From NCBI GenBank assembly GCA_052147455.1, contig JBKQKO010000128.1, forward strand, positions 7,548 to 71,547: DNA of 64,000 nucleotides, written 5' to 3'. Position 1 is the first letter of the stretch, and each line of letters opens with the position of its first letter. Below, piece by piece: positions 51,995-63,545 of this stretch. The stretch comes from Desulfobaccales bacterium (lineage in GTDB: Bacteria > Desulfobacterota > Desulfobaccia > Desulfobaccales > 0-14-0-80-60-11). The notes under the pieces were generated by a model. That model was given only the letters and a program-made list of their open reading frames with translations. It had not been told where the DNA came from and did no database searches. The position numbers were made by a program, and so were the translations under genes.

Positions 51995-53284
51995 TTACTG
52001 CCGCTCCAGCCGGATTTTCAAAAAGTGGGTGGCGCAGGAGATGCAGGGGTCGTAGTTGCGCACCAACTGTTCGCACTGCCAGGTAAGTTGGTCGTCAGGT
52101 AAATCGAGACGTTTTTCCACGAACCGCCAGAGGTCCTGTTCGATGATCTTCAGGTTTTGGGAGGTGGGCGGCACGATCTTGGCCTCCAGGATGGCCCCGG
52201 ACTCGTCCAGGCGATAGCGGTGGTAGAGCAGGCCCCGGGGCGCCTCGGTGGCGGCGCAGCCTACCCCGGAGCGGGGCTCCACTTTAATTGCCGGTTGATC
52301 AGGCCGGGCGTAGGCCGCGATGATCCTTAGAGCCTCATCCACCGCGTAAAGGGTTTCCACCGCCCGCACGATGATGCTCTGGAAGGGGTTGCGGCATTTC
52401 CGGCTCAATCCGGCCTCCTGCGCGGCTTCTTGGGCCAGGGGCGAGAGGCGGTCGAAATTCAGATGGTAGCGGGCCAGGGGGCCGACAAAATAGAGGCCGT
52501 GTCCCTGGTGCCGCGAGCGCAGGGCATTGGAGTATGAGACCTGCTCCTCGGCAAAGTGGGCCTCGTAGTCCTGAACCGCAATATCCAGGCCCTGATTGGA
52601 GACCAGCCGTCCTTCGTTGAAGGGGTATTCCTCGGCATGGCGCAGGGAGACGAATTCGTAATCCTGCTCAAACTCCGGCATGGGGAGAGCCGCCACCCAG
52701 CGCACCGTCTTCAGGGCCGCGTCCCGGGCCCACTTGAGTTCCTCCACCAGCGGGGCCAGTTCCGGTTTGGTGGGCACACGGTAGAACCCCCCCACCCGGA
52801 CGTTAATGGGATGGATCTCCCGGCCGCCCACCAGGGTGACCACCTCGTTGCCGATCTTTTTGAGCCGGAGGCCCATCTTGACCACATCCGGGTGATCCTG
52901 GGCCATGCGGATGGCGTCCTGGTAGCCCAGGAAATCCGGGGCGTGCAGCAGGAAGATGTGGAGGGCATGGGATTCGATCCACTCACCGCAATAAAGGAGG
53001 CGGCGCAGGTCCCTCAAGGGGCCGGTGACCTTCACCCCCATGGCGTCCTCCATGGCGTGCACCGCGCTCATCTGGTAGGCCACCGGGCAGATGCCGCAGA
53101 TGCGGGCAGTGATATCCGGGGCTTCGTGGAACTGGCGGCCTCTTAGGAAAGCCTCGAAAAACCGGGGCGGCTCGAAGATCTTCAGCTTGACTTCGGCCAC
53201 GGCGTCGCCTTTGACCCGGAGGTACAGGCCACCTTCGCCCTCCACCCGGGTCAGGATATCGACCTTGATGGTTCTACTTTTCAT
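51995..53284 (-). CDS. [NiFe] hydrogenase large (alpha) subunit, group 3-like
   Basis: [19 protein letters not shown]-terminal [11 protein letters not shown]-terminal DPCISCATH. Start set at ATG 53284. Confidence 0.9.
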
Positions 53285-54053
53285 GGGCCTCGCTCTCCCG
53301 GCGGAACTCCGGGGCATTGGCGTAGAATTTACGGAAGGCCTGCACCAAACCCGCTTCGGAGACCCCAAAACGCTGACTGAACCAGGCAGCCAGGGAGGCG
53401 GTGTTGGGCGTCTCCTTGGGGCCATAGCAGCCATAGCAGCCCCGGTGGTAGGTGGGGCACAGGGCCCCGCAGCCACCGTGGGTAACCGGCCCCAAACATG
53501 GAGTGCCCATGACCATGACGCAGATATTGCCCCGAGCCTTGCATTGCAGGCAGACGCTGTGGGGCGCCAGCAGCGGGGTGCAGCCGCTGAGGTAGGCGCT
53601 GATCACCTGCAGGAGCTGTCGTTTGTTGATGGGACAGCCGTTGAGCTGATAGTCCACCTTGATATGGGCCGACAGCGGCGTGGACTGTTCCAGGGTCTGG
53701 ATGTATTCCGGATGGGCGTAGACTGCCTTAATGAAATCGTTAACGTCCTTGAAGTTGCGCAGGGCCTGGATGCCGCCGGAGCAGGCGCAGGTGCCCATGG
53801 CCACCAGGTATTTGGAGTCCCGGCGCACCTTTTTAATGAGTTCGGCGTCGTGGGCCGTGGTGATGGAGCCGTCCACCAGGGTCAGGTCGTAGGGGCCCTT
53901 GCCCATGGCCCGGGAGGCCTCGACGAAAAAGGCCAGTTCCACCTCATTGGTGATGGCCAGCAGCTCGTCTTCGCAGTCCAGGAGGGATAGCTGGCAGCCG
54001 TCGCAGGAGGCGAATTTCCAGACCGAAAGCCGGGGCTTTTTTTTCAAGGCCAT
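53274..54053 (-). CDS. hydrogenase small (delta) subunit, NuoB/20-kDa-like
   Basis: [11 protein letters not shown]... and C-terminal Cys clusters. Overlaps the alpha start by 11 nt. Confidence 0.85.
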
Positions 54054-54056
54054 GAC

Positions 54057-54896
54057 TCAGACCTCCCGCCGTTCGAACCAGTCAGCGACCGCATCGTAGC
54101 GAAAGACCGGACCGTCCTTGCAGACGAAGAAGGGCCCCCACTGGCAGTGGCCGCAAAGGCCCAGGCCGCATTTCATGTGGCGTTCCATGGAGATGAAGAT
54201 TTGCCCGGGCCCCAGGCCCCGGCTCAGCAGTTCCATTACGGTGTAGCGCATCATCAACTGGGGGCCGCACACCAGGGCGGTGGTGTTGGCCAGGTCAAAG
54301 CGGGCCCGGGGAATGACGGTGGTCACCACCCCCACGCTCCCCAGCCAGTCTGCCGCGGCAGTGTCCACCGAGACGTGCACCCGGACGTCGAAGCGGCCCC
54401 GCCAACGCTCCAGTTCCTGGCGGTAGAGCAGGTCCGCGGGGGTGCGGGCCCCGTAAATCAACTCGAATTTTCCGTAGTCCGGGCGATGGCTAAGAAAGTG
54501 GTAAATGGCGGGCCTCAAAGGCGCCAGGCCTAGGCCCCCAGCCACGATGAGCACGTCCTGGCCGGCCATTTCCGTCACCGGCCAGGGGACGCCGAAGGGG
54601 CCCCGCACTCCCAGTTGCGCCCCGGGGCTAGCCTGACAAATAGCCCGGGTGATGTTGCCTAAACTGCGCACCGTGTGTGTCAGGCTTTCGGGCCGGGTCG
54701 GGTCGCCGCTGATGGAGATGGGCACCTCTCCCAGGCCGAAGGCGTAGAGCATGTTGAACTGCCCGGGCGCAAAGGCAAAGTCCGCCGTCGCGCCGGGCCG
54801 GGCCAGGTCAAGGGTGAAGGTGTCGGCGGTTTCGCGTCGCACCCGTTGGATCCGGAAGATTTCCGGCAGCATGGGGGACGGGTTATTTGCAATCAT
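54057..54896 (-). CDS. hydrogenase gamma subunit: FAD/NAD(P)-binding oxidoreductase with 2Fe-2S site
   Basis: Ferredoxin-reductase-like fold pattern and C-terminal CGLGLCGHCQ...C. Confidence 0.85.
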   Translation of the reverse strand: MIANNPSPMLPEIFRIQRVRRETADTFTLDLARPGATADFAFAPGQFNMLYAFGLGEVPISISGDPTRPESLTHTVRSLGNITRAICQASPGAQLGVRGPFGVPWPVTEMAGQDVLIVAGGLGLAPLRPAIYHFLSHRPDYGKFELIYGARTPADLLYRQELERWRGRFDVRVHVSVDTAAADWLGSVGVVTTVIPRARFDLANTTALVCGPQLMMRYTVMELLSRGLGPGQIFISMERHMKCGLGLCGHCQWGPFFVCKDGPVFRYDAVADWFERREV

Positions 54897-54916
54897 TTTC
54901 CTGCCAGGTTAGCTAT

Positions 54917-54983
54917 GGTGCGTCTTGCGCACCAGCAATTCTGTTCTGAAAAGGCTAATTATCGTTGGTGCTGAAGACGCACC
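54917..54983 (-). other. intercistronic long-stem hairpin between the cNMP-binding gene and the gamma subunit
   Basis: GGTGCGTCTT-gc-GCACCA ... 31 nt AT-rich loop ... TGGTGC-tg-AAGACGCACC. Confidence 0.5.
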
Positions 54984-55015
54984 CCACAGGGCGGGCCCGG
55001 AGACCCCCCACCCGT

Positions 55016-55474
55016 TCAGTCCTGAAACATGTCGGTGAGCTGCAGGCTGCACGCCCGGAAACGCACCGCCAGGGAATGGGCGTAGCGTTTCAACATTTCA
55101 TAGCCCAGCTCGTGGTCGGCCTCGCACTTTTCCCGGAGGCAGCTCAGCTCGAGGCCCAGGGCTCGAGTGAGGCCCACCGCCCGGGCGTCCGCGGGCCAGC
55201 GAGAAGGCTCATGGTTGACCCAAAGCCAACCCAGCGTGTCCCCTTCCCCTATGGTCTGCAAGGTCATGGGCCCGCGCCGGGCGCTGAAGATTTCCACCGA
55301 GACCCGGCCTTGGAGAATCAGGTAGAAGTGAGAAACCTTCTCCCCGGCCCGACTGAGAAACTGGCCGTCGGTAAAATTGAACCGGGAGGCGCAGGCGGCC
55401 ACCTCGTGGATATGCTGCGGCTGCATACCCCGGAAAAACGGTTGGGCCGCCAAGATGGGCTCAATGCTCTCCAT
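55016..55474 (-). CDS. cyclic nucleotide-binding domain protein embedded in the hydrogenase operon
   Basis: PFFRGM....I..........F..G..L...GE....[12 protein letters not shown]......G...L.T.G.GD..G pattern of cNMP/Crp-type beta-roll. No HTH follows. Confidence 0.75.
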
Positions 55475-56624
55475 GCTCGCTCTCCTTGAGAGGGACTTCA
55501 TTATCCCGAATGGCCCGGACCTCCTCGGTGAGGTCGATGCCCACCGGGCACCAGGTTAGACAACGGCCGCAGCCGACGCAGCCGGAGCAGCCGAACTGGT
55601 CATGCCAGGTAGCCAGTTTGTGGGTCAGCCACTGGCGGTAACGCGACCGGGGCGAGGAGCGGATACTGCCGCCATGAATGTAGGAATAGTCCACGGTGAA
55701 ACAGACGTCCTGGCGGCGCCATCTTTCGGCCACGGCGCCGGTCAAGTCGGTAACCTCTTCGACGGTATGGCAGAAGCAGGTGGGGCAGACCCAGGTGCAA
55801 TTGCCGCAGTTGAGGCAGCGGGACGTGACTTCATCCCAGCGGGGATGTTCGTAATTGCGATAGAGGAGTTCCTTGAGACCCTGGGTGTCCAGCTTCCGGC
55901 CAATATTGGCTGCCACAGCCGCGACTATGCTGGTGGCAGCCTCGATTTCCGCGAATTCGGCCGGTCGCTGGGGAACTGAATGGAGAACCCCGGCGCCCCG
56001 GCCGGTTCCCACTTCCACCAGGAAGTAATGTTTGCCTTCCTGCAAAACCTCGGTGAGCGCCAGATCGAAGCCGGAAGTGGCCCGGGGGCCGCTGCCCATG
56101 GAGACGCAGAAACATGTGCCGCAACCCCGGCCGCCGCAGTTGACCGCCAGGATGAAGGCCTGCTCCAGGCGAGCCTGATAAACCGGGTCAACGTGAGGGC
56201 CCTGAAGAAAGACCCGGCCCTGGACCGCCATGGCATGGAGGTCGCAGGCATGGACTCCGATGAAGGCGTAACGGGGGACGCTCTCGGCCGGCGGGATAAT
56301 CTGAAAGCCGCTGCCGTGGCGTTCGGCCCGCCAGAGCAGGTGCTGGGACGGAAACAGGAACTGCTTCCAGGACTGCTGCCCGACCCCGTAGCCGAAGAGG
56401 GCCTGGTCGCCCCGCGGTTGCAGACGGAAGGAGCCGGGTTCCTGCACGTCGGTCCAGCCCACGGGCAGGTCGGCCACCCCGGTCAGGTCACCGTAGAGCA
56501 ACTGGCCGTCCCGCAGAGTAGGCCCCACCAGGTGGTAGCCCCGGCGGTCCAGGGCTGCCAGGAGTTGTGGAAATTCTATTGCGGCCATCACCAGCTTGGC
56601 GCCAACCGACGCGGGAGCAGCCAT
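55461..56624 (-). CDS. hydrogenase beta subunit: 4Fe-4S dicluster protein (HydB/sulfhydrogenase beta-like)
   Basis: [16 protein letters not shown] and [14 protein letters not shown] clusters. First gene of the operon. Confidence 0.85.
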
Positions 56625-57409
56625 AACTCTCCAGGCTCGTAATTTAAAGGACTATCTCACTTATCGAACCGGTCCGCATAATCTTCACCCTATATATATG
56701 GCCTGGCTTACCTGGGGTCAAGGACAAGTTTAGTAAACGCGGGCTTTGAGGAAGCGAGAAACCGAGAGGTCGCGGGCGGGCCAGGCCCACCCGGCGCGTG
56801 GTTTTTAAGGTTAACGGGGCAGGAAGGATTTTCTGATGAACTCCAACCTCCGGCTAACAGCTCTTTTTGAGCCTTCGGCCTCATCTTCATGGGGCCGGCC
56901 ATATCAGTCTGTCGGTCCTCGGGGCCCTGCGGGATATCCCCTCAGCAAGCAATTTGCCTTTTTGACCATGACCCGGGCAGCTTTAAGGAATCAACTCCTC
57001 TGGTTGTCATAAAAGCACCGATCCAGGGTCAATCTCAAAAAGCAGTTCGTCCGCCACCCCTCCTCCCGCGGATATTCTGGAAAAAAATTATACAGGGTAC
57101 TTGCATTCCCCATAAAAATAATTATTAACAAATAATAAATATTATCTAAATTATTGGGCGTCAAATCACAGACCCATCTCCAAGGATGCGCCTGTGTATG
57201 TCCTCCGCCGAAATGTTGAGGTAAAAAGAGGCAGAAGATGGATTAACCTTTTCCCGAACCGGAACTCTTTCCGGATCGGCCTGAGTCCATCAAGGGAGAC
57301 GGGGTCCTTGACCACCCCCTCTCACTCAACTCCCTAAAACGGATATCTGGCTCAATCTCCCCCACCCGGTGCAATTAACCTGGAATGGGAATTATCCAAA
57401 GAGGATGTG

Positions 57410-57631
57410 ATGTCAAAACCGGAAGAGATGTGGCAGTGCCAAGTTACCAACTGTGGTTATATCTATGACCCGGCCCACGGAGATAAGAAGGGTAAGATCC
57501 CTCCGGGAACCCGTTTTGAGGACCTCCCTGAAGACTGGAAGTGCCCATGCTGCGGGTCAACCAAGAAAATGTTCCGACCCCTGGCAGGGCCCGGCTCGGT
57601 GGCCGAGCAGGCGAGCCACTGCGACACGTGA
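57410..57631 (+). CDS. rubredoxin-like protein (CX4C first pair, C-terminal extension)
   Basis: [16 protein letters not shown]....[28 protein letters not shown]. Confidence 0.85.
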
Positions 57632-57665
57632 CCTCCAAACCAATCAAATTACTAAGGAGTGAGAC

Positions 57666-58040
57666 ATGACTGAGAAATTGCAGGTTTACAAATGTGAAGT
57701 CTGTGGAAACATAGTGTCCATGTTGCATTCTGGAGCAGGCGATCTGGTATGTTGCGGCGCTCCCATGAAACTTATGTTGGAGAACGTGGTGGATGCTGCC
57801 AAGGAAAAGCATGTGCCGGTTATCGAGAAGACCGCCGCGGGCTTTAAAATAAAGGTGGGAAGCGTCGCCCATCCCATGGAGCAGACCCACTACATTGAAT
57901 GGATCGAGGTCATTGCCGACGGCAAAAGCGACCGCCAATTCCTGAGTCCGGGGGAAGCGCCGGAAGCCACTTTTGCCATCAAGGCTGAGAAGGTGGTGGC
58001 GCGGGAATATTGTAATCTGCACGGCCTCTGGAAGGCCTAA
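57666..58040 (+). CDS. dfx: desulfoferrodoxin (2Fe superoxide reductase)
   Basis: Centre I CEVCGNIV...CCG. Centre II H..E..H....H..CNLHGLW. 124 aa. Confidence 0.9.
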
Positions 58041-58128
58041 CCATTACGGCCTGGTTAAAGCCGCCATCCTACGCTCAACAAATTAAACACCCTTCGACCC
58101 CGAGGGGCAAATTAATCAGGTAATCATC

Positions 58129-58470
58129 ATGTCAGAGTTGATCAAATGGCGCCCGGACTGGCAGGAGGCCTTGCGCGAGGCGAAAAAAGCCAACCGCCCT
58201 CTTGCTCTGGAATTTTTTATGGAAGGGTGACCTCACTGTGACCGGTTGGTCCGTGAGACCCTCCAAGACCCCGCAGTGGTTCAGGCACTGAACGAGCGCT
58301 TCATCCCGGTGCGCCTGGAAGGACGCAGCCACCTGGATCTGGTGCGCCAATATCAGGTTACCGGGACGCCCACCACCATCCTGTTCTCTCCTGAGGGGGA
58401 GGAGAAGCACCGGTTCGCCGGTTTTTACCCCTCCGAGGAGTACCTCAAGGAACTGGCGAAAGGCGGCTGA
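58129..58470 (+). CDS. thioredoxin-fold protein, candidate selenoprotein (UGA at codon 34 in a U-P-H-C redox motif)
   Basis: MSELIKWRPDWQEALREAKKANRPLALEFFMEG-TGA-PHCDRLVRETLQDPAVVQALNERFIPVRLE...YQVTGTPTTILFSPEGEE. The same frame is kept across the TGA at 58228-58230, and a hairpin follows immediately. Confidence 0.65.
58232..58257 (+). promoter_or_regulatory. SECIS-like stem-loop 1 nt downstream of the in-frame UGA
   Basis: CUCAC-U-G-U-GACC GGUU GGUC-C-GUGAG. The stem has 10 bp with two bulged U and a GGUU apical loop starting 14 nt 3' of the UGA. Confidence 0.55.
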
Positions 58471-58613
58471 AGCACCTGCTGAAAGATTGTGTTACCCTGG
58501 GGCCTAGTCCGGAATCTCCTTTCTGTGTGATGAGTTATGGCTAACCCATCCTAACGGATTCAGGGAGTTTTCGGACTTTTTTTAATCATTTAACCGGACA
58601 ACCCTGTCCAACT

Positions 58614-60548
58614 TTATAATTGTTGTTCCGCCTCATTGGGTTTATTGATTTTTATAGGTAAAATAAAAGAAATCTTGGTTCCTTTGCCCTCTTGACTCCA
58701 TAATTTAAGAGTGCCGTCCAGCATCCGTACCCGTTCTTCCATAGATCCCAGCCCCATTCCACCTGCGGTGGCAGTTCCGGCCAAGACCTGCTCCACATTA
58801 AACCCGGTTCCGTTATCTTTCACGCTAAAATGGATGGTTTCCCCGCACTTTTTGATAGCCATCTCTACCTGGGTAGCCTGGGCATGTTTTCCAATATTAG
58901 TCAGAGTTTCCTGAAAGATTCGATAAATAATGATTTCCGTCTCCCGAGACAATGAGTTGGCGATATCATCCATGTCAATAGAACATTCAATCTCTTGTCC
59001 CTTACAAAATTCCTCAAACAGTCGTATGAGGGTCCCAGAGAGGCCAATATCTTCCAGAATTGAAGGCCTGAGGTCATTGGAAATGCGGCGGATATTATCA
59101 ATGATGCCGTCAAGATAGTTAAGCGCGACGGAACATCCATCCCTGGCGTCCTTAAGCTCAGGTGGCAGGTTCTTCTCAACAGCTCGCATCTGCAACTTTA
59201 AAACCATCAGGGATTGGCCCAAGTCATCATGTAATTCCAGCGAGATCCGCTTGCGCTCCCTTTCTTGGGCGGTTAAGAGCTGGGAAGCCAGGAAGCGGAG
59301 CCTCTGTTCAGCCTCCTTGAGGGCCTCCTCCGCGCGCAGGCGCTCCGTTATTTCCTCCTGCAAGGACTCCACCGTAAACTTTAATTCGGCAGTGCGCTCT
59401 TCCACCAAGCGTTCCAGGTCCGCGTGGGCTCTGTGCAGGGCTTCCTCGGCTCTTACCCGCTGGATAGCCGTGCCTAGTTGCATACCCAGCTTTTCTAGCA
59501 ATTCCACCGTGGCTAGCGGCATGAGGTCTTTCCGGGGATCGGCCGCATGGACCATGCCCAGGATCTGATCCCCAAGACGGATAGGCACCAGGGCCATGGA
59601 TTCGTAGCCGAACTTCCGGCAGTTGCCCCGAAGACCTTCCTGCACTTCCGGTGAAAGCTTGCAGAAAAATTCATCCAGGCGGTTTATGTAGAAAGAGCCG
59701 CCCGGGGTGTAATAGGGAAGTTGGGGATCGGTATCCCCCTTCACGATGTTGATGCACATGCACCGGTCCACCCAGATGGAGAGACGGTTTTCCAGGTCAT
59801 AGAATTGCTGCCTGAAGCCATCGTAGGACTCATAAGGGATCTCCCCATTTTCCTGGAGGATCCTGATCCCCGCCGCCTTATAGCCGGTGAGGTTCTTGAT
59901 TTCCGCCACAAAGGCCTGCAGCAAGGGAGCCATCCTCTTGTGGTAATTGGCAATTTCCAGAAACCGGTAGGAAGCCTGGAGGGCTTTCTCGGCCCACTTG
60001 CGCTTGCTGGTGTCCGAGAAGGCAGTTCTGACAAAACTTCTCCCGGCCGTATCCTGGTAGAAGGCGCTCTCCAGGAGGGTAAAAAACGCCTGCCCGTCTC
60101 TTATCTTCAATCTTAATTCGACGGTCTGCCGTTCCCGCCCCTTAAGCACCAGGTTGAGATGCCGGCGAAACGCCCCTCTATCTTCCGTAACCATGAAATG
60201 GGTCAATTGCCGGTCCATGAGCCGGCTTCTCTCCACCTGCAATAGCCGGGCGGCGGTGAGGTTGGCTTCTCTGATAATTCCGAGTTCATCAAGGGTGAGG
60301 TAGCCGATGGGGGCAAAGTCATAGAGGTCGCTGTAGCGGCTGCGGGATTCTTCCAATATTTCCTGAGCCTGGCGCAGTTCATCGTTCTGCATCTCCAACT
60401 CGATTTGATGCACCCGCAATTCGTGAATCAACTTTTGGGCCTCGGCCGGCGAAATTTCTTCCGGGAAAGGATTTTCCAATTGCAGTCTATCCTCGGCCTT
60501 CCCCCGGAGTTCCTCAGCGTGAGAACGATCCGGTTTTCTCTTCTTCAT
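58614..60548 (-). CDS. PAS/GAF sensor histidine kinase (HisKA_3 / NarX-type)
   Basis: Coiled coil, PAS, GAF, H-box ISLELHDDLGQSL, and HATPase N/G boxes (VKDNGTGF, GGMGLGSMEERV). I prefer ATG 60548 over the TTG at 60632. Confidence 0.85.
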   Translation of the reverse strand: MKKRKPDRSHAEELRGKAEDRLQLENPFPEEISPAEAQKLIHELRVHQIELEMQNDELRQAQEILEESRSRYSDLYDFAPIGYLTLDELGIIREANLTAARLLQVERSRLMDRQLTHFMVTEDRGAFRRHLNLVLKGRERQTVELRLKIRDGQAFFTLLESAFYQDTAGRSFVRTAFSDTSKRKWAEKALQASYRFLEIANYHKRMAPLLQAFVAEIKNLTGYKAAGIRILQENGEIPYESYDGFRQQFYDLENRLSIWVDRCMCINIVKGDTDPQLPYYTPGGSFYINRLDEFFCKLSPEVQEGLRGNCRKFGYESMALVPIRLGDQILGMVHAADPRKDLMPLATVELLEKLGMQLGTAIQRVRAEEALHRAHADLERLVEERTAELKFTVESLQEEITERLRAEEALKEAEQRLRFLASQLLTAQERERKRISLELHDDLGQSLMVLKLQMRAVEKNLPPELKDARDGCSVALNYLDGIIDNIRRISNDLRPSILEDIGLSGTLIRLFEEFCKGQEIECSIDMDDIANSLSRETEIIIYRIFQETLTNIGKHAQATQVEMAIKKCGETIHFSVKDNGTGFNVEQVLAGTATAGGMGLGSMEERVRMLDGTLKLWSQEGKGTKISFILPIKINKPNEAEQQL

Positions 60549-60638
60549 ATCCTTCCCCTTGTACTGATGCACAACTGGCGAAACTCCTAAGGTCCTAGCG
60601 GATGCTGCCTTTTGCCCCCGCGGTAGTTGCAATAATAG

Positions 60639-63545
60639 CTAATGTGGTCTCTTGTCGGTAATATCCTCCATCGCCAAGAGAAGGCGCGCCGGTTGACTCT
60701 CCCCGCCCGGAATCTGGCGGGCGTTGAGTAGCATTGTTTTCCTGCCTAAATCCGGGAATTCAACTTCCACCGCAAAGTCTTCAAATGAGGTATTCTGGGA
60801 GATAATCTCTTCCAGCAGTTCCCGCAGACTGGGAATATTCCATTGGCCTTTTCCCAGGTCGAAGATGTGCCGATTTTCGGTATCTGCCGCCGACATCCTG
60901 AAAAATCGGTAGAAAGACCGGTTGCCAGAGACCACCATCAAGTCGCCAGCGAGCACCAAAAGAGGCTCCCGCACGGTATCCACAATGCTTTCCGCATAGG
61001 TCCTGGCCGCCTGGATGAGGTCTTCCAGCCTTTTGCGTTCGGTAATATCGACGAAGGTAAGCACCACCCCGTCAATCATATTCTCCGAGGTCCGATAAGG
61101 CAAAAAGCGCAGATTATACCATTTGCCATCCACCCCGGCTTTAATCTCCCTTTCCTTGGTTTGCAGGGTGGCCAGCACCGCTTCAGCATCCTGGCAAATA
61201 TGGTCGTACCCGGTTTTTGAGGTGATATCCCGCAGGGATCGGCCGGCGTCGGTGGGAATCAGGTTAAAGAACTGGGTTATGTTGGGAGTGAAACGTCTGA
61301 TGCCTAACTGGCTGTCCAGAAAAATTATGCCGACCTCCGTACTGATAAACAGATTATTGATATCGTCATTAATTTCCGCCATATCATCTATTTTCATCTG
61401 AAGTTCTGAGTTTACCGAGACCAATTCCTCATTAGTGGATTGCAGCTCTTCTCTGCCGGTCTCCAACTCTTCATTGGTGCTTTGTAGCTCCTCGTTAGCC
61501 GACTGGAGTTCTTCATTGGAGGCTCCTAATTCTTCGATGGTAGTCTCCAAATATTCTTTGGTGGCCTGGAGTTCCTGTTCCAGAGTGGTGAGGCGCGCCT
61601 CGGCTTCTGCCGTCTCCGGTGGGGTTTCCCTGTCTGTTTCTTTCGGCCGGGCTGGAGTTTTTTCATCAAAGACTACCAGGAACAGGTTGGCGGGGGCTTC
61701 CGGTGTTTCGAGAAGGGGTTGAATATGCAGATCAACGGTTACCGAGCCATCTTTTTGTTTTAGTTGCACTCCCGGATAACTGACAGTTCTTTTTTCTTTC
61801 ATGGCTTGACGGAGTGCGGTGGTTAATTTATAGCGCAGACCTTCTCGGGCCATTTTTAAAATATTAAAACTCGGCTCTCCTGAAGGTGACGCCAAATATT
61901 GGTCGGTGTTCCCCTGGAAATAGAGAATCTCGTGCCGCTCATTAACGAGAACGGACGGAGGGGCGTACTTATCCAGAATAATTCTTCCCATGATTTCTCG
62001 CACATTCATTTCTCGCGTCACCCTTTTGATGGTTGGTTCGGTCTCCGGGGAAGTCGGCATAAACCCCCGGGCCGGATAGGCAGCCGGTTTCTGCCTGGCC
62101 AACCCCTTGCTTTGGAAAATTTTCCATTTCACGTCGATGGGGGTAAAGAGATCGGCAAATGCCCCGATGGTCTCGGATGAACCTAAAAATAAGTAACCTT
62201 CCGGATTTAAGGTGAAGTGAAACAGGGGCAGGATCTTTTTCTGTATCGTGGCATTCATATAGATGAGCAAATTGCGACAACAGATCAGGTCCAATTTGGT
62301 GAAGGGTGGATCGCTGACCAGGTTTTGGACGGCATAAAGCACCATCTCCCGAATTTTCTTCTTGATCTTATAGTTGCCGTCCTTTTTGACAAAAAAACGT
62401 TGCAGGCGCTCCGGAGAGACGTCGGCAACCACACTCTCCGGGTATTCCCCCAATCGAGCCCGTTCGATGGCGTCGGGATCGATGTCGCTGCCGAAGATTT
62501 GCACGTTAAGATGTTTTCCCAGCCGGTCCATGGCCTCCGCCATGATTATGGCAAGGGAGAGAGATTCTTCTCCGGATGCGCAGCCTGGGACCCAAACCCG
62601 CACGTTCCCATTCCCCCCTTTGCTTTCCAAAATGCGGGGTATTACCTTGTTAACCAAAACCTCAAACGCAGCAGGGTCTCTAAAAAAACTGGTCACCGTG
62701 ATCAGCAGGTCTTTAAAGAGGGCCTTTACTTCCGGCGGGTTCTCTTGAAGATAACGGTGGTATTCAGCAATCCGGGCAACTTTATGGAGGGCCATGCGCC
62801 GTTCTATTCGGCGGCAAATGGTGTTGGCCTTATAATGAGAAAAATCATGGCCGGTGGTGCTCCGAATCAGCATCAGAATTTTTGGCAAAAAGTTTTCACG
62901 TAGTCCTTCTCCGGTTATAGTCTCGGGCCCTTCCAGATAAGGCTGTTTTACATAGTTGATCAGTTCCCCCGGCATCTTTTCCACCGGCAACACCAGGTCC
63001 ACCATCCCGGTGTCAACCGCGCTTCGGGGCATGCCGGGGTATTTGGCCTGTTGTTCCGCTTGAGCCATGGTCAGACCCCCGGCTCCTTTAACTGCTTCCA
63101 ATCCCAAGGTCCCGTCGCTGCCGGTTCCCGAGAGGATTATGCAAATGGCCTTTTCCGCCTTTTCTTCCGCCAGAGAGCGGAAAAAATGATCGATGGGTAA
63201 CCTGATCTTCCGGGTTCTGTCCGGCTCCACCAGTTGAAAAATGCCATTGAAGATGCCGACCTCCTGGTCCGGTGGGTTCAAATAAATACAGTTGGGGACA
63301 ATCCTCATTCCATCTTGCACTTCTACGACCTTCATCGAGGTGTCTTTTTTAAGAATGTCCCCCAAGATACTTTTATGTTGGGGACTTAAATGCTGGATAG
63401 CCACAAAAGCCATACCCACTCCCGTTGGCATGTGGGCAAAGAAGGTTTCCAGGGCCTCCAGACCTCCGGCGGAGGCCCCTATCCCCACTATGGGAAAGGA
63501 CTGCTTACTTCTCGGTTTTCGGTCTTTTGGTTGGATCTGCTTCAT
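60639..63545 (-). CDS. CheB methylesterase - CheR methyltransferase - coiled coil - PAS fusion protein
   Basis: 968 aa. IVGIGASAGG (CheB-like), CheR SAM-binding region VWVPGCASGEE, the ELQSxNEEL heptad coiled coil, and two PAS-like regions. Confidence 0.85.
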   Translation of the reverse strand: MKQIQPKDRKPRSKQSFPIVGIGASAGGLEALETFFAHMPTGVGMAFVAIQHLSPQHKSILGDILKKDTSMKVVEVQDGMRIVPNCIYLNPPDQEVGIFNGIFQLVEPDRTRKIRLPIDHFFRSLAEEKAEKAICIILSGTGSDGTLGLEAVKGAGGLTMAQAEQQAKYPGMPRSAVDTGMVDLVLPVEKMPGELINYVKQPYLEGPETITGEGLRENFLPKILMLIRSTTGHDFSHYKANTICRRIERRMALHKVARIAEYHRYLQENPPEVKALFKDLLITVTSFFRDPAAFEVLVNKVIPRILESKGGNGNVRVWVPGCASGEESLSLAIIMAEAMDRLGKHLNVQIFGSDIDPDAIERARLGEYPESVVADVSPERLQRFFVKKDGNYKIKKKIREMVLYAVQNLVSDPPFTKLDLICCRNLLIYMNATIQKKILPLFHFTLNPEGYLFLGSSETIGAFADLFTPIDVKWKIFQSKGLARQKPAAYPARGFMPTSPETEPTIKRVTREMNVREIMGRIILDKYAPPSVLVNERHEILYFQGNTDQYLASPSGEPSFNILKMAREGLRYKLTTALRQAMKEKRTVSYPGVQLKQKDGSVTVDLHIQPLLETPEAPANLFLVVFDEKTPARPKETDRETPPETAEAEARLTTLEQELQATKEYLETTIEELGASNEELQSANEELQSTNEELETGREELQSTNEELVSVNSELQMKIDDMAEINDDINNLFISTEVGIIFLDSQLGIRRFTPNITQFFNLIPTDAGRSLRDITSKTGYDHICQDAEAVLATLQTKEREIKAGVDGKWYNLRFLPYRTSENMIDGVVLTFVDITERKRLEDLIQAARTYAESIVDTVREPLLVLAGDLMVVSGNRSFYRFFRMSAADTENRHIFDLGKGQWNIPSLRELLEEIISQNTSFEDFAVEVEFPDLGRKTMLLNARQIPGGESQPARLLLAMEDITDKRPH

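Follow-up and report, generated by a model that had tools for sequence, protein, structure and literature searches.

What does an in-frame TGA mean at the catalytic position of a small thioredoxin-like gene, an end to translation or an amino acid? The question is raised by positions 58129-58470 of a 64,000-nucleotide stretch of DNA from a Desulfobaccales bacterium (GenBank assembly GCA_052147455.1, contig JBKQKO010000128.1), the whole of which is referred to here as the window. On the forward strand a single frame runs from ATG 58129 through 33 sense codons, a TGA at 58228-58230 and 79 further sense codons to a stop TGA at 58468-58470; translation of 58129-58470 gives MSELIKWRPDWQEALREAKKANRPLALEFFMEG*PHCDRLVRET...KGG*, and the internal TGA is the sole interruption of the 113-codon frame. 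An initial annotation made from the sequence had read the frame straight through this codon, and had remarked that the track of open reading frames (ORFs) reports the distal part only; both statements are correct, the mechanical ORF list offering for the locus solely a TTG-started piece of 74 codons (58246-58470). The same TGA-bearing gene, identical or one base different, is found in independent public assemblies, which carry it as a 33-residue ORF plus a 74-residue ORF, and NCBI records name the 74-residue fragment "thioredoxin family protein." The identical copy lies, for instance, on contig JBKQSN010000167.1 of assembly GCA_052325785.1.

The answer favored here, with a probability of about 0.9, is that 58129-58470 is one selenoprotein gene in which UGA codon 34 specifies selenocysteine (Sec). 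Translation would start at ATG 58129 and yield a single 113-residue cytoplasmic protein with a thioredoxin fold, of the DsbD-gamma or Thioredoxin_2/_7 type. The UGA would be decoded by the complex SelB.GTP.Sec-tRNA(Sec), with SelB presumably tethered to the mRNA by a short hairpin within the coding sequence that begins 13 nt past the UGA (58244-58264). Sec34 would then act as the attacking nucleophile and Cys37 would resolve the selenenylsulfide, making the protein a selenol/thiol-disulfide oxidoreductase.

Homologous genes carry most of the weight. A protein search yields about 70 full-length relatives of 112-115 residues, from Desulfobaccales, Syntrophobacterales and other "Deltaproteobacteria" metagenome-assembled genomes (MAGs), and more than 45 clusters of exactly 74 residues, which represent the same truncated gene call as at the window locus. 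The UGA column holds Cys in every full-length homologue, in the contexts CPHC, CPAC, CHHC or CSHC. DNA was taken for 157 loci from species-representative genomes and metagenomes (individual loci are cited below by our labels, such as L130); codon 34 is TGA in 72 of these (66 distinct) and TGT or TGC in 51 (49 distinct), giving the 115 distinct genes compared below, 66 TGA-bearing (Sec) forms and 49 Cys forms. The initial annotation had placed the UGA at the first redox Cys position and proposed that an alignment be consulted for Cys in that column. The alignment confirms the placement, with TGA in 66 of 66 Sec forms and a Cys codon in 49 of 49 Cys forms. Sec forms uniformly read G-U-P-H-C-x-R-L-V-R-E-T; their pairwise nucleotide identity has a median of 73% and a minimum of 55%, and their synonymous sites are near saturation (synonymous divergence, pS, of about 0.6). 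The frame is otherwise intact in about 62 of the 66. Four look damaged: L130 carries an extra TAA, L008 is frameshifted in its C-terminal part, and the N-terminal frame is broken in L057 and L152. The TAA of L130 (3001-3342) lies in frame at codon 52, the sole such case among the 66, and reflects a genuine pseudogene or else a sequencing mistake. One JGI/IMG protein, P0002 (146 residues), shows W both in the Sec column and where the stop belongs, because its TGA-containing Sec-form gene was translated with genetic code 4; spurious N- and C-terminal extensions are the result.

Sec and Cys versions of the gene occur together in several genomes. The MAG MFD00032.bin.1.71 holds three separate Sec copies, and at least 8 MAGs hold Sec and Cys paralogues together. 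(Loci L008, L010, L011 and L023 all belong to MFD00032.bin.1.71; paired Sec/Cys paralogues are L005/L054, separated by about 11 kb of a single contig, L012/L016, L013/L051, L015/L022, L017/L021, L003/L042 and L009/L050. Many Cys paralogues have CPAC instead of CPHC.) In a neighbour-joining tree, poorly resolved because the protein is short, Sec and Cys forms are interleaved, and parsimony asks for at least about 8 switches between them. The RNA element described below is essentially identical across all Sec forms. We infer from these sequence comparisons that Sec is ancestral in the group and was repeatedly replaced by Cys.

A second line of evidence is constraint on the RNA just past the UGA. 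Positions 58247-58260, UUGGUCCG(U/G)GAGACC, are invariant in 64 to 66 of the 66 Sec forms, except for the U/G choice at 58254. Third-position entropies for codons 38 to 44 are 0.46, 0.44, 0, 0, 0.57, 0 and 0 bits in Sec forms, against roughly 1-1.8 bits elsewhere in the gene and 0.66-1.2 bits for the same codons of the Cys forms. Likewise pS over codons 38-45 falls to 0.21 in Sec forms, as compared to 0.61-0.65 in the flanks and 0.52 in Cys forms. The frozen stretch folds as a hairpin at 58244-58264 (hairpin B in Table 1), all seven pairs of which are complete in 45 of 66 Sec forms but in only 1 of 49 Cys forms. RNAalifold recovers the 4-bp core of this hairpin as its only consensus structure for the Sec forms, and no consensus at all for the Cys forms. 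Across the Sec alignment 93.9% of hairpin B cells are paired, and one pair occurs as GC in 41 sequences, GU in 10 and AU in 3. A constraint acting on RNA just after the UGA is thus specific to Sec forms, and hairpin B is probably the SelB-binding element used in the window strain. It is the comparison of 66 TGA-bearing relatives, not folding energy, that shows the feature to exceed chance.

The initial annotation had pointed to a different SECIS-like hairpin (SECIS, selenocysteine insertion sequence), here called hairpin A, at 58232-58257. That hairpin exists, and it is the minimum-energy fold of the stretch (-12.2 kcal/mol over 42 nt, or -17 over 51 nt with 4 extra closing pairs), but it is not the element that the family conserves. 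The two structures are mutually exclusive, since both use GGUC 58248-58251. Hairpin A could still be what SelB binds in this particular strain, the gene remaining a selenoprotein, and its GGUU loop is well conserved (G58244 in 64 of 66, G58245 in 61, U58246 in 60, U58247 in 66) and resembles the GGUC loop of the Escherichia coli fdhF SECIS; moreover, T58233 and A58241, peculiar to the window, strengthen hairpin A, while T58262 weakens hairpin B. This is nevertheless unlikely. All 10 pairs of hairpin A are complete in just 3 of the 66 Sec forms, the pair 58233-58256 is present in 12, the 5' strand of the upper stem (58240-58243) is variable, and 82.5% of its alignment cells are paired. No covariation supports it among Sec forms, RNAalifold does not recover it, and its loop would begin 13 nt past the UGA versus 18 nt in fdhF. 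The invariant synonymous site C58260, which hairpin B accounts for, is left unexplained by hairpin A. Folding energy cannot decide the matter because the genuine E. coli fdhF SECIS does no better against shuffled sequences, with a z-score of -1.3. For the family, the SECIS assignment needs to move 12 nt downstream, from 58232 to 58244.

Several observations weigh against the selenoprotein reading or the part given in it to hairpin B. The z-score of hairpin A against shuffles is an unremarkable -0.5 to -1.0, and the isolated hairpin B element of the window has an energy of about -6.3 kcal/mol, as against -12.2 for hairpin A. The window carries A58262U (His45Leu), unique among the 66 Sec forms, which puts a U.U mismatch into the lower stem of hairpin B. 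A covariation test of hairpin B is not significant, only one pair being variable and 29 of 500 shuffles reaching its score; since the element is nearly invariant, its structure rests on conservation and on analogy to fdhF. Rfam returns no match at the gathering threshold for the window, nor any with E up to 10 for 58180-58330. Finally, neither the 64-kb window nor about 1 Mb of flanking sequence yielded selA, selB, selD or tRNA-Sec. The tRNA search used ARAGORN on the window and 36 loci, and for the proteins the window and all loci were queried by tblastn with SelA and SelB of Syntrophus, SelA of Moorella and SelD of Actinobacillus; the tblastn searches matched only the GTPase domain of EF-G. 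A database search with SelA gave only Syntrophales-type proteins among the 120 matches listed, which bears on Desulfobaccales in neither direction, and a search of the flanks for a Sec-type FdhA gave only matches to non-Sec molybdopterin oxidoreductases. Sec competence of the genome is assumed, because the window and flanks contain no such machinery.

That absence is what could be said for a UGA that is read through without Sec, for example by a near-cognate tRNA for Trp or Cys, in an organism where the Sec pathway is lacking or unused. Such read-through is very improbable. It would not explain a hairpin of the fdhF SECIS type, at the right distance, conserved in TGA-bearing forms only; the position is that of a catalytic Cys, where Trp would be inactive; and a homologue in Geobacter and Syntrophus is a published selenoprotein with Sec in the same column.

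Slightly less credible still is ordinary termination, with a 33-residue peptide, a separate 74-residue protein from TTG 58246, or both, as the real products. Annotation pipelines do report ORFs of exactly these sizes, yet the 74-residue piece would be without strand beta1 and the whole UxxC motif, and the homologous Cys forms are single proteins of 112-115 residues. Inspection of the sequence finds no Shine-Dalgarno motif ahead of TTG 58246. The upstream ATG has a conserved one, AGGAG or GGAGG being kept 6-10 nt ahead of it in nearly all Sec forms; the AGGT of the window is weaker than the version found there in most relatives. TTG 58246 owes its own invariance to its place within the conserved RNA element, not to use as a start codon.

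Least tenable is a dead copy of a Cys-type gene or a TGA introduced by sequencing or assembly error, for which one might cite the split gene calls and the additional TAA of L130, but which is contradicted by the retention of TGA at one codon across 66 distinct sequences, about 62 of which have an otherwise intact frame, by purifying selection on the 33 codons upstream of the UGA as strong in Sec forms as in Cys forms (ratio of nonsynonymous to synonymous divergence, pN/pS, 0.36 and 0.37; downstream in Sec forms, 0.26), by the identical gene in independent assemblies, by three Sec copies in one genome and by the Shine-Dalgarno sequence conserved before the upstream ATG. Genetic codes 4 and 25 were rejected as well, TGA being an ordinary stop in 7 of the 19 confident genes of the window, including rubredoxin and the end of the selenoprotein gene itself. 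Pseudogene, assembly error and alternative code are therefore excluded. The simple nonsense pseudogene that the initial annotation had named as one outcome that would undo its proposal is not what the relatives show, and its call of a probable unannotated selenoprotein is supported by the retained TGA, by the RNA constraint limited to Sec forms, and by the splitting of the gene at the hands of gene callers. A mechanical screen of the window for other TGA-split selenoproteins gave 79 candidates, every inspected one of which consisted of neighboring or spurious ORFs.

The encoded protein is readily placed by fold. With Cys put for the internal stop, Pfam models score above their cut-offs for Thioredoxin_2 (PF13098, 54.3 bits against a gathering cut-off of 27), Thioredoxin_7 (49.9), Thioredox_DsbH (39.5) and Thioredoxin (26.5). 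A profile search of PDB ranks DsbD-gamma first (E 7e-13, residues 5-110) and aligns its CVAC to (U/C)PHC. The structure model of an 81%-identical Cys form, P0001, built from 41 sequences, has a thioredoxin fold with a predicted local distance difference test (pLDDT) score of 92; residue 34 is found at the N-terminal end of helix 35-46 and closely follows strand 25-30, the canonical place of CxxC. Best structural matches of this model are Thermus thioredoxin (template modeling, TM, score 0.85), DsbD-gamma 1uc7 (TM 0.84) and DsbH. The call of a Thioredoxin_7/DsbD-C-like domain, made initially from the letters, thus agrees with Pfam, with the PDB profile match and with the structural matches. The P-H dipeptide between the two redox residues is that of DsbA (CPHC). 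Judging by its sequence, whose N-terminus is hydrophilic and has no hydrophobic segment, this is most likely a stand-alone protein of the cytoplasm.

Coordinates of the gene, its RNA elements and its neighbors are collected in Table 1.

Table 1. Features of the selenoprotein locus and its surroundings, in window positions.
Feature	Position	Strand	Description or basis
Predicted full-length selenoprotein gene	58129..58470	+	113 codons, Sec34; stand-alone DsbD-gamma-like thioredoxin fold, active site G-U-P-H-C
UGA codon 34, proposed to be read as Sec; first, nucleophilic CxxC position	58228..58230	+	Cys/TGA column in homologues
Cys37 codon TGT, resolving Cys of UxxC	58237..58239	+	Invariant Cys in 115/115 sequences
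Shine-Dalgarno-like AGGT	58118..58121	+	8 nt before ATG 58129; sequence inspection
Hairpin B, family-conserved, SECIS-like	58244..58264	+	GGU-U-GGUC-[CGUGA]-GACC-C-(A/U)CC; invariant core 58247-58260
Hairpin A, first described	58232..58257	+	10 bp, U58237 and U58239 unpaired, GGUU loop; minimum-energy fold
Rubredoxin gene, first of presumed operon	57407 (or 57410)..57631	+	Pfam Rubredoxin 76.5 bits
Desulfoferrodoxin (superoxide reductase) gene, second of presumed operon	57666..58040	+	Desulfoferrod_N 70.4 bits, Desulfoferrodox 84.5 bits
Block about 90% nucleotide-identical in closest relatives	57003..58472	+	blastn vs L078, L081, L001; alignment
Hydrogenase Fer4_22 iron-sulfur subunit	55461-56624	minus	
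Hydrogenase FAD/NAD-binding subunit	54057-54896	minus	
Hydrogenase small subunit	53274-54053	minus	
Hydrogenase large subunit	ending at 51995	minus	C-terminal motif DPCISC

Rubredoxin and desulfoferrodoxin genes do stand directly upstream on the same strand, as first proposed. The block shared with the closest relatives takes in the promoter region, a leader, rubredoxin, desulfoferrodoxin and the selenoprotein gene, and synteny stops just past the selenoprotein stop codon. The order rubredoxin-desulfoferrodoxin-selenoprotein recurs in L078-L081 and in L160-L162, L158 has rubredoxin-rubredoxin-rubrerythrin-desulfoferrodoxin-flavodoxin-selenoprotein, and in other close Sec forms the next gene downstream encodes rubredoxin. 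The selenoprotein would be co-transcribed with rubredoxin and superoxide reductase, and because of this co-transcription it most likely belongs to a set of genes for defense against oxygen or reactive oxygen species. That role comes from association, which counts against it, as do the distant Sec forms that occupy other neighborhoods, for example beside nif genes in L159; the oxidative-stress setting proposed initially holds for close relatives, where the gene order is the same, and not for the family as a whole. It is conceivable, if doubtful, that the short Sec thioredoxin is a dedicated partner of the rubredoxin/superoxide-reductase module, perhaps as a selenol peroxidase or as a reductant. 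If so, it would handle H2O2 or oxidised thiols arising from superoxide reductase, and would be a new component of oxygen defense in anaerobes. A weaker possibility than this partnership is that the two mutually exclusive hairpins past the UGA form a switch that tunes Sec insertion.

Some further features of the surroundings deserve record. Before the rubredoxin operon lies an AT-rich stretch (57105-57165) with sigma-70-like hexamers TTAACA-16-TAAATT at 57125-57152; its identity to L078, the closest relative, is only about 64%. An imperfect AT palindrome, ATAAAAATAATTATT / AATAATAAATATTAT, at 57112-57145 in the same stretch might be an operator of the Fur/PerR type, as would suit an oxidative-stress regulon. 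From this promoter-like region to rubredoxin runs a leader of about 250 nt (57165-57405), containing a hairpin CCGAACCGGAA / TTCCGGATCGG at 57254-57279 and conserved in L078, L079, L081 and L001. The leader was considered as a special RNA and rejected: it has no Rfam match, and its 89% identity to L078 is not above the 92-95% of coding genes, so its conservation is attributable to relatedness. A soluble multi-subunit [NiFe] hydrogenase cluster occupies 51995-56624 on the minus strand, with an ORF for a cyclic nucleotide (cNMP)-binding domain within it (55016-55501) and, as it appears, a maturation-protease-like ORF next after the large subunit. The large subunit was rejected as a second Sec protein, its DPCISC motif having Cys. 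Converging on the selenoprotein gene from the other side are two large sensory proteins (58614-63545, minus strand). The first (58614-60632, minus strand) is by Pfam a histidine kinase of PAS/GAF type that has HisKA_3 and HATPase_c domains; the second, a 968-residue ORF (60639-63545, minus strand), resembles, by sequence motifs alone, a methylesterase-methyltransferase fusion of the CheB/CheR type that also has PAS domains.

Databases list truncated versions of no fewer than 66 distinct genes of this kind, from metagenomes and from MAGs of Desulfobaccales and of Syntrophobacterales type. Their alignment, together with the nearly invariant element of 14-21 nt, makes a ready signature for building a family model. 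The element would be a SECIS as short as the minimal one of E. coli, embedded in eight codons that it also constrains, and the coexistence of Sec and Cys paralogues within genomes gives the family evolutionary interest. The rubredoxin and superoxide reductase link suggests a selenium-dependent part of oxygen defense in these anaerobes.

How does the locus compare to systems already known? The closest counterpart of hairpin B is the minimal SECIS of E. coli fdhF, a 17-nt element, GGUUGCAGGUCUGCACC, with the form GGU-U-GCA-[GGUC]-UGC-ACC. (Checked against 5426 E. coli genomes, the string matches at 100% within fdhF in 5419.) Both are in-frame hairpins beginning shortly past the UGA, at 11 nt in fdhF and at 13 nt for hairpin B, which puts the latter about one codon further away. 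The 5' arm starts as GGUUG and the 3' end is CACC in both, taking hairpin B in its family form. In each, a U on the 5' side of the stem is left unpaired and the apical loop contains GU. In E. coli, the bulged U and the loop G and U have established roles in SelB binding. The two differ in that the upper stem of hairpin B has 4 bp instead of 3, in that its loop is the 5-nt CG(U/G)GA rather than GGUC, and in that its unpaired U faces a C in a 1x1 internal loop, whereas that of fdhF is a bulge.

Among proteins of known structure, the gamma domain of E. coli DsbD (1uc7, 2fwe, 1vrs) shares the thioredoxin fold, with TM scores of 0.82-0.84 and root-mean-square deviations of 1.8-2.0 A. DsbD-gamma has Cys and is one of the three domains of a membrane protein, lying in the periplasm, whereas the window protein is predicted to be a stand-alone chain of 113 residues with Sec. 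Identity as DsbD was rejected, the three-domain architecture being absent and the NCBIfam DsbD model scoring 45.7 bits against a cut-off of 330. No NCBIfam model covers the selenoprotein family, which fits the truncated public annotations, and only sub-threshold domain matches are seen, to TsoB, DsbD, VPGUxxT and Trx7/PDZ models. The likeness to seleno_TsoB (NF045694), Trx_VPGUxxT_two (NF041383) and trx7_PDZ_seleno (NF041199) is a local similarity of Trx_7-like domains, at 31-55 bits; curated cut-offs of 275-805 bits lie far above, and the architectures differ.

The nearest published relatives with Sec belong to the "thiol:disulfide interchange protein" selenoprotein family (PF13098, UxxC), which two reviews (PMC9312934, PMC13188914) class as predicted with high confidence and credit to an earlier study, reference 12 there. 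Sequences of this family from Geobacter metallireducens, G. uraniireducens and Syntrophus aciditrophicus are given by Zhang et al. 2006 (PMC1794560, supplement 4). A literature search on Desulfobacca and selenocysteine found nothing relevant. By BLASTP, the G. metallireducens selenoprotein is 33% identical over 108 residues (E 2e-20), with its U33 aligned to U34 of the window protein, and that of G. uraniireducens is 28% identical (E 2e-17), again with U aligned to U. Common blocks include I-x-W near the N-terminus, L-x-F-F-x-x-G-U-x-x-C, V/I-P-V-R, T-P-T and R-x-x-G-F-x-P, and the published members, like the window protein, come from anaerobes of the former Deltaproteobacteria. They are, however, about 186-190 residues long, with an extra C-terminal helical domain of about 80 residues, whereas the window protein ends at 113; the alignment to the G. 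metallireducens member stops at its residue 110 of 190. The dipeptide of UxxC is I-G in the published members and P-H here. With identity near 30% and the full architecture of the published members not matched, the proteins are filed as a separate subfamily. The gene is thus correctly recognized but not new in kind, its family having been described in 2004-2006; it appears to represent a short, distant and mis-annotated subfamily of a known family of thioredoxin-fold UxxC selenoproteins, rather than an orthologue of the members already published.

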